From a virus (taxonomy: Duplodnaviria > Caudoviricetes): a stretch of DNA of 29,169 nucleotides. Positions within the stretch are counted from its first letter, which is position 1. Each line of letters begins with the position of its first letter. The translations under genes and the position numbers were made by a program. The DNA is taken from positions 1-29,169 of IMG/VR virus record IMGVR_UViG_3300020043_000889; one strand, 5' to 3'. Below, piece by piece: positions 20,716 through 29,169 of this stretch. The notes beneath the pieces are model-generated. The model made no database searches and was not told where the DNA came from. It saw nothing but the letters and a program-made list of their open reading frames with translations.

Positions 20716-21657
20716 ATGCAAGTAATACCGAAAGCCAAACATGGCAGCAAAGAATGGTTGCTGGCACGCTGGAAAGATGAGCAAGGGCGTTGTGTCTTTG
20801 GTGCATCAGACATTCCAGCATTAATGGGTGCAAGCCCATACAAAACCAGAGGAGAATTGTTTGCTGACAAAGTGAACGAACCTGTTGAGCAAGAGGAGAC
20901 TGCTGTGTTTAGGCGTGGCAACCTGCTTGAGAAACCGTTGCTTGAGGAAGCGTCACGCATACTTGGCACAAACATATTCACACCAGAAGTGATCTACCGT
21001 GACGGGCGATTGTCAATCAGCCTTGACGGTGTGGACAATGAACAGCAACCAACTGTTGTTGTTGAGGCTAAGACTTCAACCCGTTACAGCATCTACACAT
21101 CAGATGATTTGCCTGATGAGTGGTGTTGGCAGGGTTGGGCGCAGATGGCTGTTCTGAAAGTGCCTGTGTGGTTCGTTGTGTTGGATCGTGATCAGCGCAT
21201 ATCTGTTGTGGAACTACCAGCGAACCTGAAAGCGATTGATGCACTGCAACTTGAGGCATCAGTGTTTGGTGGTTGGGTTGATGGTGATCCTATGGATGAG
21301 GACATAAACAACTTCAGTGCAACTGACATTGCACGCATCTGGAAGGCAACACCAACCAGTGTGGAACTTCCTGCTAGTGCAGTTGATTGGGCTTTACAAC
21401 TGGAGGAGGCACGGGCTTTGGCAAAGCAGGCTGCTGATCTGGAAAGCAAGGCGAAGGATGCGCTTGCACAAATGTTGTTGGGTAATGAGATTGGCACTGT
21501 TGATGGTGTGCAGTTGGTGACTTGGAAGCAACAGGCTGGCAAAGCGTCACTGGACACTAAGCAGTTGCGTGCAGATCACCCAGAGTTAGTAAGTCAATAT
21601 GAGAAACAGGGCGCACCATTTCGTGTGATGCGTGTAACGAAAGGAAAAACAAAATGA
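20716..21657 (+). CDS. YqaJ-like viral recombination exonuclease
   Basis: EWLLAR...FGASDI, RGNLLE, SLDG, VEAKT, QxxAQM. Confidence 0.92.
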   Translation: MQVIPKAKHGSKEWLLARWKDEQGRCVFGASDIPALMGASPYKTRGELFADKVNEPVEQEETAVFRRGNLLEKPLLEEASRILGTNIFTPEVIYRDGRLSISLDGVDNEQQPTVVVEAKTSTRYSIYTSDDLPDEWCWQGWAQMAVLKVPVWFVVLDRDQRISVVELPANLKAIDALQLEASVFGGWVDGDPMDEDINNFSATDIARIWKATPTSVELPASAVDWALQLEEARALAKQAADLESKAKDALAQMLLGNEIGTVDGVQLVTWKQQAGKASLDTKQLRADHPELVSQYEKQGAPFRVMRVTKGKTK

Positions 21658-22442
21658 GTGAGGAAATAAACACAGTGCTGTTGCGTGCAGTGCTAGATCA
21701 ATACGCAGTACCTGATCCAAAGATTGTGGGAACTATCCCACGCAACGGAATCAATCTGGCGTATGTCAGTCACGCTGATATCACACGCATCTTGATTGAG
21801 GTTGATCCAGCGTGGTCTTGGCAGCCTATGGAATGGGTGAATGGCAGACCTGCAATCAATGTTGAGAATGGCACAGCAACCATGTGGGGAACACTCACAC
21901 TTCTTGGAAAGTCAATGATTGGTGTTGGTTCGGTTCGTGCTGACAAACAAGAATATGAGAAGGAATTGGTCGGAGATTTCTTGCGCAATGCAGCAATGCG
22001 CTTTGGAATTGCGATCAGTTTGTGGTCTAAGCAGGACTGGTCAGACAACACCACGATCATCAGCCTTCCAGCAGCACAAGCGAAGCGTGCAGAGGAAGCG
22101 AAACCTTATGTTGGTAATCATCCTGCAAAGGGTATGCCTTCACCAAAGGTTGTGCGTGAGTTCGTGCAAGACAGCGAACCAACACCTGATGAGGTAGCGG
22201 AGATTGCTGCACAGTTCAATGCCACGATTGTTGAGAACATCACACCAATCACTAAGCCTGTTGCCTCATCTGGTGGCAAGGCAAGCGATAAGCAGAAAGG
22301 TCTGATTAGCAAACTTGCCAAAGAAAAAGTGAATGGTGATTGTGTGCCAATCATGCAGCAGTTGTTTAACAAGTCTGCTGTTGGTGATCTGACCAGCAAA
22401 GAGGCATCAGGTCTGATCAAACATCTGATGGAGTTGCGCTGA
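21654..22442 (+). CDS. Single-strand annealing protein, Rad52/Sak-like
   Basis: YVSHADITRIL...DPAWSW...GDFLRNAAMRFGIAISLW. Paired with the exonuclease. Confidence 0.8.
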   Translation: MSEEINTVLLRAVLDQYAVPDPKIVGTIPRNGINLAYVSHADITRILIEVDPAWSWQPMEWVNGRPAINVENGTATMWGTLTLLGKSMIGVGSVRADKQEYEKELVGDFLRNAAMRFGIAISLWSKQDWSDNTTIISLPAAQAKRAEEAKPYVGNHPAKGMPSPKVVREFVQDSEPTPDEVAEIAAQFNATIVENITPITKPVASSGGKASDKQKGLISKLAKEKVNGDCVPIMQQLFNKSAVGDLTSKEASGLIKHLMELR

Positions 22443-23821: not shown

Positions 23822-24248
23822 GCCGTTTGATGCTGCTCTATATCAAGATGATGATGATGCGAAACTTTTGGTGATGGAATGGTTGAACAGCAGAGGTCAC
23901 AATATTTTGGTGAACCCAGATCAGTATGGGATAGATCTAATCGGATTAGACAGAAGCGATAGATCGTGTGCATGGGAAGTTGAAGTGAAACACAACTGGA
24001 AAGGCTATGAGTTCCCATTTGACACGGTTCACTATTCAGTGAGGAAAAGAAAGTTCGTGCAGCCTGATGTGAAAACATGGTTCATTACTTTGAATCATGA
24101 GCGCACACGGGCTGTGGTGTTTAGTCATAAGCACTTCATGGAAGGAAGGCTTGTGCAGAAATCAACTATTTACACACAAGATGAATGGTTTGTTGAGATC
24201 AGTGTTCGTCACGGTATATTCATTGACTTAGAAAAGGAGGGTGTGTGA
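23814..24248 (+). CDS. PD-(D/E)xK nuclease-fold protein
   Basis: YGIDL...WEVEVK motif. ATG 23814 overlaps the upstream stop. Confidence 0.7.
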   Translation: MSKPFDAALYQDDDDAKLLVMEWLNSRGHNILVNPDQYGIDLIGLDRSDRSCAWEVEVKHNWKGYEFPFDTVHYSVRKRKFVQPDVKTWFITLNHERTRAVVFSHKHFMEGRLVQKSTIYTQDEWFVEISVRHGIFIDLEKEGV

Positions 24249-24664
24249 CACCAGCACAAATTGAGGGAATGGTGGACAGGATCTGTGGCTTGTTTCCAAC
24301 AACACAGATTGGTCGCAACACTGTTAAGAACGCTTGGGTTACAGATCAGTTCTTGTTGGATGCAGATGTTGATGATGCACGCAAAGTGACTGACTGGATC
24401 AAAATCAACAGCGAGAAGTTTCCTCATTCGTTGCGTGAACTGCACAGCATATTTCATAAGGTTTCTGGATTGCATCAAATTAAGAGCGAAATTGAGTGCA
24501 AACTTTGCAAAGGTTTGTTGTGGGATGACGGTATTAGTTATTCATCTGATGGGAAACAATTAACACATCAACCCACAGTGGTTTTTCAAGGTCACACCTA
24601 TAAGGTTGTGCGCCCATGTCCTGCGTGTCGTGGAGAGAATTGGACACCACCAGACAACAGATAG
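24245..24664 (+). CDS. Possible helicase loader/inhibitor-like protein with C-terminal Zn finger
   Basis: Helical N-terminus (GLFP...NAW...EKFP) reminiscent of SPP1 G39P-like domains. CKLC...CPAC. Confidence 0.5.
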   Translation: MTPAQIEGMVDRICGLFPTTQIGRNTVKNAWVTDQFLLDADVDDARKVTDWIKINSEKFPHSLRELHSIFHKVSGLHQIKSEIECKLCKGLLWDDGISYSSDGKQLTHQPTVVFQGHTYKVVRPCPACRGENWTPPDNR

Positions 24665-24671
24665 AAGTTTT

Positions 24672-24970
24672 TACAATCGGCTAGTTGCATGACCCACACT
24701 GTTGCAAGGTGAACGGGTAACACACGGAAAGCGTGGGTAGATTGCGCTGCACTGAATTATGTAAGACGAAATAGTTTGGTCAAAAGCGTGAGGCACTGTG
24801 AGTTGATTTGGTAGTTGGAGTGAGGCATCCCAACGGGAGAGCATTACAACTCTGTCTCTGCTGTGATTCAACAAATATATATATTTCATGTTCAACTGCT
24901 ATGCTTAAGACACACGCCGTAGTGAGGCGAACGACCAGCGCAGATGTTGCGCCGTGACGCTCAGGAGAGC
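24672..24970 (+). other. Structured non-coding region, candidate RNA-primed replication origin
   Basis: TACAAT -10-like box, serial hairpins, GGGAGAGC, AT palindrome at 24873-24886, and three GC hairpins with a pas-like sequence. Confidence 0.5.
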
Positions 24971-25033
24971 AACAGCAAGAAACAAACAAACTTTAGTTCT
25001 ATATCTATATACAAACTTAGAGGAGGGAAAGTG

Positions 25034-25558
25034 ATGGCAAGTTTTATGAGGAAAGTATTAGTAAGTGTGATTGTGGTTCTGGCAGGTTTTGCTGGTGTAG
25101 CGCAAGCGTTGAATGTTGATGAGAAGTCTGGTTCTGTTTATGTAAAGAACAGTTATGTGCCTGATCGTGTGATTGAAGTTCCTTATCCTGTTGCATCTAA
25201 TGCAAAGTGTGGTCAGTGGTGGCAGTTGATGCACGATCTTGGGTGGTCTGACAAAGACATTGCCAAAGGGGATGCAATTATTTTTCGTGAGAGCCGTTGC
25301 AATATTGACAGCGTGAACTCTGCAGATCCAACAACCATTGGCAAGCACAAAGGTTCTTTCGGGTTGTATCAGATCAATCTGTATTGGATTAAGAAAACAC
25401 GCTGGTATCCAAATGGATTCCTGCAAACAAAATTAGAGCGAAATTTAGTACCAACTGACTTGCTGCAGCCTGAAATCAATCTTGCTGCAGCCCTAGAGAT
25501 CATCAAACAGAACAGGGCTGATGGGGGCTGTGGCTGGTCTGCTTGGAGGGCTTGCTAA
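25034..25558 (+). CDS. Secreted lytic transglycosylase (SLT/lysozyme-like)
   Basis: AGAGGAGGG RBS, signal-peptide-like N-terminus, FRESRC (catalytic Glu), GLYQIN, GWSAW. Confidence 0.85.
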   Translation: MASFMRKVLVSVIVVLAGFAGVAQALNVDEKSGSVYVKNSYVPDRVIEVPYPVASNAKCGQWWQLMHDLGWSDKDIAKGDAIIFRESRCNIDSVNSADPTTIGKHKGSFGLYQINLYWIKKTRWYPNGFLQTKLERNLVPTDLLQPEINLAAALEIIKQNRADGGCGWSAWRAC

Positions 25559-27263: not shown

Positions 27264-27277
27264 GTATGCTGTAATTC

Positions 27278-27352
27278 TCCTGCGGTAAGCCACGCATCCA
27301 GTCTTTCCCCCCTCTTGAGGCTGGATCGCCCATCTGCAATGATGGCGCAGGA
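27278..27352 (+). ncRNA. Candidate small RNA with anti-RBS stem-loop 2 (three-way junction)
   Basis: TATGCT -10-like box at 27265. Closing stem TCCTGCG/CGCAGGA. 10-bp stem ATCCAGTCTT/GAGGCTGGAT with 11-nt loop TCCCCCCTCTT. Second hairpin CCATC/GATGG. Confidence 0.65.
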
Positions 27353-27382
27353 ACTAGAAAGCAAGCGAGAACGGAGAAGCCA

Positions 27383-27517
27383 ATGACTATCAATGACCTG
27401 TTGAACGCCATTTACTTTCTGCGAAAGATCAGCGTTGGACAAATGGAGGTGGACAGGTTAGTTGAAACTGTGGAAGCCTTAGAGAACGAAGTTGAACGCA
27501 GAAGGAGAAAAAAATGA
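27383..27517 (+). CDS. Small hypothetical protein (44 aa)
   Basis: GGAG RBS. MTINDLLNAIYFLRK...ERRRRKK. Confidence 0.7.
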   Translation: MTINDLLNAIYFLRKISVGQMEVDRLVETVEALENEVERRRRKK

Positions 27518-27896: not shown

Positions 27897-28438
27897 TCCG
27901 AAAAGAACTAGAACACCTTGCCATCAACATTGATGAGATACACACACACCCATCCAATGTGCGTCAAGGAGATGTGGGTGCAATCAGCGAATCACTAAAG
28001 GCTCACGGACAATACAGAGCGATTGTGTTCCAGAAATCAACAGGCAGAATCCTTGCAGGCAATCACACATGGAAAGCAGCGAAGGCTTTAGGTTGGACAC
28101 AGATAGCAGCAACACCAGTCATATGTGATGACCAGCAAGCCCTGCGCATACTGCTGGCAGATAACAAAGCCAATGATCTCGCAACCTATGACGAACCAGA
28201 ACTGATTGAACTGCTGAAGCAACTGGCAAACACAGACGAAGGACTACTAGGAACACTCTTTGATGGTGACGAACTGGATCATTTGATCTCTGATGATCAG
28301 CAAGATCAAACAGGAGATCAACTTTCATTTTCAGAAAAGTATGAAGTTGTTATTGAATGTAAAAACGAAAACGAACAAGCAGAACTTTTGGAAAGACTTC
28401 ACAACGAAGGTCTAACAGTTAGAGCATTAACCATATGA
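27893..28438 (+). CDS. ParB/Sulfiredoxin N-terminal domain protein
   Basis: HPSNVRQGD, GQYRAIV, ILAGNHTWKAA, LADNK. Confidence 0.88.
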   Translation: MIRKELEHLAINIDEIHTHPSNVRQGDVGAISESLKAHGQYRAIVFQKSTGRILAGNHTWKAAKALGWTQIAATPVICDDQQALRILLADNKANDLATYDEPELIELLKQLANTDEGLLGTLFDGDELDHLISDDQQDQTGDQLSFSEKYEVVIECKNENEQAELLERLHNEGLTVRALTI

Positions 28439-29091
28439 GTATCACACTTAAATCAAACATTGTTGAAACACCAAGAGTTATGCAGATAAGAGGAATGTTT
28501 GATATAGAAACACAAAAAACAGAAACAACAACAATAAACGACAATATCCCAGACTTAACAGAAAAAGAATGGAACATTGGTTTAATAGTTGGTGCATCTG
28601 GAACAGGCAAATCAACCATTGCCAAAAAACATTTCAACCAACTGCTAGACCCAGAAGTTCAATGGCAAAACAATGCGCTTATAGATAACTTCCCAAAACA
28701 AAACACACTCAAAGAAATAGTTGCAACGCTCACATCAGTGGGACTGTCAAGCCCACCAACATGGCTGCGACCATACGAAACACTTTCAACAGGAGAAAAG
28801 TTCCGTGCAAACACAGCCAGACTTCTACTAGAACACCCAGAACTGGTAGCAATAGATGAGTTCACATCAGTAGTGGACAGAACAGTTGCACAAATAGCAT
28901 CAACATCAATCAGCAAGACAGTACGAAAAAGAAAACAAAAATTAGTTGCAGTGTCATGTCACTACGACATAATTGAATGGCTACAACCAGATTGGATTTA
29001 CGAACCACAAAGTGGTCAATTCACATGGAGGTCACTTCAACCCAGACCAATCATACAAGCCAACATCATCAAAGTTGATAAAGCAGCGTGA
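28435..29091 (+). CDS. ABC-type ATPase domain protein, probably 3'-truncated
   Basis: Walker A GASGTGKST, signature-like LSTGEK, Walker B AIDEF, H-loop SCH. No TM partner gene. Confidence 0.88.
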   Translation: MSITLKSNIVETPRVMQIRGMFDIETQKTETTTINDNIPDLTEKEWNIGLIVGASGTGKSTIAKKHFNQLLDPEVQWQNNALIDNFPKQNTLKEIVATLTSVGLSSPPTWLRPYETLSTGEKFRANTARLLLEHPELVAIDEFTSVVDRTVAQIASTSISKTVRKRKQKLVAVSCHYDIIEWLQPDWIYEPQSGQFTWRSLQPRPIIQANIIKVDKAA

Positions 29092-29169
29092 CAACTATTT
29101 CTTTGAGTGTGTTTAGTTCTGGGAAGTTATCTATAAGCGCATTGTTTTGCCATTGAACTTCTTGGTCTA
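29085..29169 (-). repeat. 85-nt inverted copy of 28646-28730 at the window end
   Basis: The reverse complement aligns without gaps with 5 mismatches. Confidence 0.92.

Follow-up and report, generated by a model that had tools for sequence, protein, structure and literature searches.

The window, i.e. the complete stretch of DNA analysed here, is a contig of 29,169 bp from an HK97-type siphovirus with genes for WhiB, a RecE-like exonuclease and a single-strand annealing protein, as identified with PHROGs and Pfam, and because of these genes its host is probably actinobacterial. An Acidimicrobiales MAG includes, in its bin, a 31-kb contig with a relative, which is only a hint at the host. The window has no terminal repeat and hence is not a whole genome; in the relative L191, the stretch that is missing from the window contains an HNH gene and three small ORFs, the latter without PHROG match. 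The last ~78 nt of the window (29092-29169) are an inverted copy of 28646-28715 (67 of 70 positions identical), and the ABC-ATPase gene at 28435-29091 is probably cut short by this artefact at the contig end.

The element lies in the gap between a 139-aa gene and an SLT-like lytic transglycosylase gene (Table 1). When considering the ORF map, this gap (279 nt to the first ATG) is the largest non-coding gap of the window, as stated in the preliminary description; the second largest (27264-27513, 250 nt) is found at the same location in relatives. The motifs that had been listed for the gap are all present: TACAAT (24672), GACCCACACTG (24691), ACCC (24692) with GGGT (24715), CACG (24723) with CGTG (24732), ACTGAATTAT (24751) with ATAGTTTGGT (24771) inside CGCT (24745) and AGCG (24785), GTTGG (24814) with CCAAC (24830), GGGAGAGCATTAC (24835), the AT palindrome (24875) and the pas-like pieces (24915-24959). 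The label 'helicase-loader-like' for the upstream gene is not upheld: it has no family match in PHROGs or Pfam, its predicted fold (pLDDT 69.5) has no Foldseek match at E≤0.001, and both leads to a loader are weak (a G39P_N cluster at 0.87, with 11% of members, and lambda P with E 5.5). The 139-aa gene is not found in the 15-kb carriers of the element.

Table 1. Coordinates of the element, its parts and the neighbouring genes in the window
Feature	Position	Strand	Description	Basis or remark
RecE-like exonuclease and single-strand annealing protein	20716..22442	+		PHROGs/Pfam profile search
139-aa gene	24245..24664	+	helical N-domain plus CxxC...CxxC	
Candidate structured non-coding RNA	24673..24841	+	~170 nt; predicted replication pre-primer	covariation; 286 distinct family members, with flanks
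Conserved 5' leader	24673..24690	+	begins ACAA(T/C)	family motif
Hairpin H1	24692..24718	+	outer stem ACC/GGT, internal loop, inner stem CACT/GGTG, loop end YGCA	
Hairpin H2	24723..24740	+	4 bp, GNRA loop, optional extra G; then near-invariant GGTAG	
Stem P4	24742..24791	+	long, variable, 3' bulge	3' strand resembles phage c2 origin transcript
Terminal hairpin	24814..24834	+	5-6 bp, loop of 10-11 nt with RGGCA	in 131 of 149 distinct elements, many stem types
G-run	24835..24841	+	adjoins terminal hairpin, no U-tract	predicted site of RNA-DNA hybrid and of priming
A/T-rich spacer	24842..24896	+	includes AT palindrome 24875-24884	A/C-rich in miniphages
Extended -10 box TGCTATGCT	24897..24905	+		putative promoter of downstream SLT operon
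'Pas-like' hairpins	24915..24959	+	clade-limited	probable 5' leader of SLT gene
SLT-like lytic transglycosylase gene	25034..25558	+	RBS at 25020	SLT_3 E 1.9e-5, below cut-off

The segment 24673-24841 belongs to a conserved family with an RNA-type fold, which spans hundreds of uncultured freshwater phage sequences and is absent from Rfam. The seed search, with a 16-mer from 24722-24737, gives 119 viral loci, of which 74 are true copies; the other 45, together with three matches of a loose pattern, were dropped as unrelated sequence. Further patterns give 88, 86, 111 and 120 viral and 97 metagenomic stretches, which partly overlap, and two pattern scans of GTDB give no contig and two contigs, respectively. 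To counter pattern bias, loci were also fetched by their neighbouring proteins: the family model R1 matches 66 of 80 such loci for the 139-aa protein and 62 of 80 for VRR-NUC, and several of the misses are divergent copies or cut contigs. R1 also misses three carrier candidates: the copy of G006 is recovered by motif, that of G009 is divergent and recognised by its 3' part, and in G007, where no element match is found, the contig breaks at the expected place. The model R2 matches all 49 chosen records, most of which were chosen as known carriers, with a single copy in 44.

The fold is evident from the comparison of the relatives; the window sequence on its own folds no better than shuffled sequences (z 0.6). 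Among the protein-picked loci, H2 is fully paired in 60 of 61 candidates, with 10 different stem types; the search pattern had set the loops and, for the outer pair, the purine/pyrimidine class, and had left the pairing free. With the serial model (H1, then H2), 63 diverse cores are 87.8% paired versus 69.5% when shuffled, and double changes are found at 11 of the 12 core pairs (115 cells versus 30 in shuffles, a value reached in 0 of 500); the H2 pairing served as a filter in this covariation count, the less filtered figure being the 60 of 61. In H1, double changes occur at all five pairs of the inner stem and at two of the three pairs of the outer stem. The 65 distinct H1 inner stems have G-T over A-C pairs in a ratio of 29:11, and GNRA loops of five kinds occur among the family members, which together suggest an RNA on the + strand. 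The serial-stem reading of the gap is backed by this covariation among relatives, the structural conservation that the preliminary description had asked for. A three-way-junction model, with ACC paired to the last GGT, fitted the first set and failed in divergent clades; it was replaced by the serial hairpins.

The terminal hairpin plus G-run is present in 270 of the 286 elements, and a T-run of at least five within 24 nt after the G-run is found in one element only. On the minus strand there is one promoter-like site at 24783-24756 (3 sites versus 2.3 expected), and no terminator. Rfam 15 covariance models give no match for the window (E≤5) or for five relatives (E≤1), and the family is not described in the literature that was searched. 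The tables of the IMG/VR candidate-RNA catalogue (PMC10690425), to which that comparison is confined, contain no motif match, and parts of this RNA may be among the unnamed candidates of the catalogue. Chance matches only are obtained by blastn of the gap, and of a miniphage copy, against INPHARED; the small cultured actinophages RRH1, Decurro and BonaeVitae and the plasmid pAsa1 have no family-model match.

TACAAT could be taken for the -10 box of a promoter. Its first T is present in only 27 of the 155 relatives that have the ACAA motif, and in the window TACAAT is probably the start of the RNA rather than a -10 box. Free-standing podovirus copies have a promoter-like site of the TGnTAnnnT type 7-8 nt ahead of the ACAA(T/C) motif; the window copy has no promoter-like site directly ahead and is likely to be fed by read-through from the early operon. 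Downstream, hairpins of the window's 'pas-like' type are found in 56 of the 286 elements and were not seen in the lysis-boundary copies that were inspected. Because TGnTAnnnT precedes them by 8-26 nt in 55 of these 56, including the window, they are probably the leader of the SLT operon. In another 131 of the 286 elements, from miniphages, the G-run is followed after ~100 nt by GC hairpins with mini-loops of the GNA type, and 99 elements have neither type of hairpin. A motif of the ACATAC(C/A)G type is repeated on both sides of the element (upstream in L075, L097 and L043; downstream of the G-run in many miniphages) and is possibly a promoter or a regulator site.

The carriers are ~30-kb siphoviruses like the window, complete 15-kb 'miniphages' and ~38-kb podoviruses, and four gene contexts are observed. 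In the ~15-kb siphoviruses (G003 and G004 being end-repeat complete), the element follows a VRR-NUC or annealing gene and precedes the HNH-terminase; in a second context, it lies between the 139-aa gene and SLT, as in the window. In the ~38-kb podoviruses it is antisense and divergent to the terminase gene, or antisense between a small gene that closes the lysis module and a phosphoesterase operon. When 82 loci with flanking sequence (80 out of 120 from one pattern search, and 2 from GTDB) are scored with an ORF heuristic, 22 have both neighbours on the opposite strand, and 43 the upstream neighbour. This free orientation speaks against a general role as leader or packaging site. Of 10 complete miniphages, 7 have a gap of 320-400 nt that is filled by the element and is the largest or second largest of the genome.

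Searches of PHROGs and Pfam give no match to an initiator, primase, helicase or polymerase for any of the 51 ORFs of the window, in agreement with the preliminary description, and none of these four functions is found in the PHROG or Pfam scans of 13 end-repeat-complete carriers. An initiator in complete relatives would have spoken against the origin proposal, and no recognisable one is found; the complete miniphages examined likewise have no recognisable replication gene. In the window and in G003 (26 ORFs), every ORF was scanned; G004, G001 and G002 contributed their distinct early ORFs, and G006-G012 contributed representatives. Added to these were 111 further unknowns from pattern and GTDB loci and, from 11 more end-repeat genomes, 146 of the 162 cluster representatives (ORFs of ≥60 aa, all but 16 long ones). 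The DNA-related matches are an SSB in one podovirus, nucleases, methylases, a MoxR-type AAA ATPase with a weak clamp-loader match and one weak processivity-factor match; a match to a 'primase' family falls on a methylase domain. As a positive control, gp23 of Decurro, a phage without the element, is recognised as HTH_36 (E 2e-8). This absence concerns recognisable genes, and the many small carrier ORFs without annotation may include an unrecognised initiator. The relatives found do not include one in which an initiator replaces the element, and the swap comparison is therefore one-sided.

Three observations on gene content are recorded here. Arthrobacter phage Decurro gp23 (L451:14084-14752), annotated only as HTH, has internal direct repeats in its HTH_36 gene and looks, from its sequence, like a lambda-O-type initiator with iterons. 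In the 17-kb Microbacterium phage BonaeVitae, a hairpin-rich gap of 640 nt between HTH genes (L452:15770-16409), which is not matched by the family model, is a possible separate origin candidate. In podovirus carriers (L694:2916-5005 and L834:17237-19499), the MoxR-type AAA ATPase adjoins a 444-aa protein.

From these data we propose that the family element serves as the primer at a protein-free origin, at which host enzymes would carry out replication, a reading that we regard as probable, with reservations. Host RNA polymerase would transcribe the element, from its own sigma-A-type promoter in the podoviruses and by read-through of the early operon in the window. G-clusters favour R-loops, and the folded 5' domains would hold the G-rich 3' end on the template as an R-loop, the RNA of which would be turned by host RNase H and Pol I into the leading-strand primer near 24835-24850. 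Host restart proteins would then load the replisome onto the displaced strand, and phage annealing protein and resolvase would subsequently yield concatemers; the RecE-like exonuclease and annealing protein of the window are likely helpers for this later step. This scheme of transcript, R-loop and Pol I is modelled on what the available texts describe for the ColE1 (PMC3167613) and Ceduovirus (PMC7150918) origins. The working mode would be like that of ColE1 RNA II and of the phage c2 PE1 transcript, homology with ColE1 not being implied.

Among working systems, the lytic phage c2 comes closest, with an origin that is protein-free and transcript-dependent. Ceduovirus origins replicate a plasmid without phage proteins and require a non-coding transcript, and PE1 of the Ceduoviruses (Lactococcus phage c2, bIL67) is, as proposed for the family, a promoter-driven structured non-coding transcript from an intergenic gap of a lytic tailed phage, as described in the available text of PMC7150918. 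The c2 transcript ends with a hairpin and a seven-G run, ~250 nt from its start, and the bIL67 transcript with a hairpin and two G4 tracts. An exact 18-mer of the c2 transcript, on the transcript strand, recurs as the 3' strand of P4 in one member type (3 loci); this length is reached by 0 of 1000 shuffles, and the other strand gives 10. When the P4 profile is run over 93 kb of controls, c2 comes first, with E 0.19 and a score above those of 1000 shuffles. The match is no more than a lead, being post hoc, as it was noticed by eye among 12 control loci, and it spans the 3' half of P4 only. The shared 18-mer and the P4 profile have no match in bIL67, and the core H1/H2 model has none in c2. The Ceduovirus transcript is also longer (~250-330 nt versus 170-230 nt), its host is a Firmicute and its function is shown, whereas the family is known here from sequence.

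RNA-based origins are also described for the non-RepA prophages of the cluster A mycobacteriophages Alma, LadyBird and RedRock (PMC7157519, text available in part). Like the family, these origins belong to actinobacterial phages and have a non-coding RNA and no Rep, and the Alma and LadyBird regions have a hairpin plus GGGGGAGC near the far end. Unlike the family, they are ~600 bp long and serve prophage-plasmid maintenance beside parABS, being dispensable for lytic growth. Their best family-model match has E 1.3, and the window has no ParA and its sole ParB-N gene is 3 kb from the element. The MRB plasmids of the Vibrionaceae, likened to the family by description only, are a Rep-less, RNA-based replicon with an antisense RNA I, unrelated to ColE1 (PMC3035462, in its available part), which implies that RNA-based origins arose more than once.

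Some observations count against the origin reading. Two copies of the element are found ~11 kb apart in three podovirus records, the podovirus copies are oriented opposite to most of the genes, so that forks would run head-on, and the GC skew at four-fold sites has mixed signs and shows no agreement with the orientation of the element. The paired copies, in G019 (L833:6770-6836 and L834:15539-15609), G020 and G021, differ in subtype and are both antisense to genes.

The main rival reading, unlikely in our judgement but the most serious one, is a small RNA acting in trans as a decoy or sponge for a host protein, e.g. RNA polymerase or a defence factor, replication being started by recombination or by an unrecognised small protein. 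Such an RNA would be in agreement with the promoter-like sites of its own, the free orientation and the two copies of the podovirus records; the invariant loop and junction bases suit protein binding, and an annealing protein and a resolvase-type nuclease are common among the carriers. An intrinsic terminator in just 1 of 270 elements is, however, unusual for a discrete sRNA, and the element is kept in 15-kb genomes in which the near-universal early genes are only the annealing-type gene and SLT. Recombination-dependent replication alone still requires a first round.

It is improbable that the element is a single-stranded DNA signal, folding as DNA in a lagging-strand or single-strand origin. 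GNA mini-loops are stable in DNA, and the mini-loop GC hairpins of the miniphages would fit this; the core, however, has GNRA tetraloops and sits behind promoter-like sites, and the mini-loop module, missing in the 99 elements noted above, precedes late genes and may be their leader. A packaging RNA, or a cos/pac-linked signal, is very improbable: its location just ahead of the HNH-terminase in miniphages and beside the terminase gene in some podoviruses is suggestive, but in the window the small terminase is >4 kb away, many podovirus copies are at the lysis/early boundary, and the siphovirus and podovirus carriers have different terminase families. Highly improbable, too, is a cis-acting leader or antiterminator of the downstream operon, or a 3' UTR of the early operon, as the same-strand position between operons in the siphoviruses might suggest; it is largely refuted by the loci with both neighbours on the other strand, and the four contexts and the extended -10 box of the window's own downstream gene also argue against it.

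The preliminary description had read the gap as a possible origin like that of ColE1, complete with a PriA primosome assembly site (pas). The three collinear look-alikes on which this was based do exist, when compared with the ColE1 record NC_001371, which was used here and is not pBR322 itself, and none is significant against shuffles. The best local alignment, that of the pas-like piece, is equalled by 70, 339 and 750 of 1000 shuffles in three scorings. The window element has at most 8 exact bases in common with the RNA II region, and the best family-wide match to RNA II, a 13-mer found in 22 of 440 family sequences, is equalled in 71 of 500 and 110 of 1000 shuffles. R1 and R2 have no match in four ColE1-type origins, and blastn of the gap against PLSDB gives only 27-nt arsH matches. 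A true ColE1-family origin (an RNA II homologue plus n'-pas) acquired by a phage has practically negligible probability, its folds and lengths also being different. The insignificant pas match, for hairpins that are clade-limited and behind an extended -10 box of their own, removes the PriA-site step and leaves the primer idea standing. What is retained of the primer-RNA origin is the structured RNA-type element of ~170 nt, its end with hairpin and G-run, and the carriers without recognisable initiator; the ColE1 kinship, the pas and the TACAAT promoter are given up.

The logic proposed here is nevertheless that of the ColE1/pMB1 origin, i.e. a folded transcript, a G-rich 3' end, and host RNase H and Pol I (PMC3167613 and PMC3035462, in the parts available), and, like a ColE1-type replicon, the window and the carriers have no Rep protein recognisable by profile searches. 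Compared with ColE1/pMB1 RNA II, the family element is much shorter, has a different fold and no conserved pas, and no clear antisense RNA I is seen.

RNA-based, initiator-free phage origins are already in print, for prophages (PMC7157519) and for lytic Ceduoviruses (PMC7150918), as far as the available texts go, and the kind of mechanism is not new; the new part is the RNA family, absent from Rfam 15 and from the literature searched. More tentative, and falling somewhat short of an even case, is the wider proposal that this compact, mobile primer-RNA gene would be the lytic origin of abundant freshwater actinobacterial phages, from 15-kb miniphages to 38-kb podoviruses, would replace all initiation proteins and would have a structural module in common with the origin RNA of the dairy phage c2; RNA-primed, protein-free origins would then be widely used by small tailed phages of different phyla. 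For freshwater metagenomes, a peak of ~15-kb 'miniphages' is described in bioRxiv 670067, in the available main text of which the word 'replication' does not occur. If the origin reading is right, protein-free RNA origins would no longer be confined to a few plasmid families, cluster A prophages and Ceduoviruses but would include a widespread lytic group, and Actinobacteria would gain a very small replicon. The family provides a clonable candidate origin of 170-230 nt; its natural variants number in the hundreds, and mutagenesis can be guided by them and by the fold derived from covariation. If the origin reading is wrong, a well-conserved phage RNA family absent from Rfam remains.

The genomes of the small carriers have further features. 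Two long records of the set searched with R2 resemble doubled miniphage genomes, and records of 25-30 kb (G002, i.e. L211-L212, G054 and G060) resemble two related 15-kb genomes arranged head to tail, as shown for G002. Complete siphoviruses of ~15 kb are very common (L213 and L214, i.e. G003 and G004, and many protein-picked loci); these encode an in-frame fusion of HNH and large terminase as well as a protease-capsid fusion. Many ~15-kb siphovirus contigs stop ~550-650 nt past the element, within or just after the HNH part.
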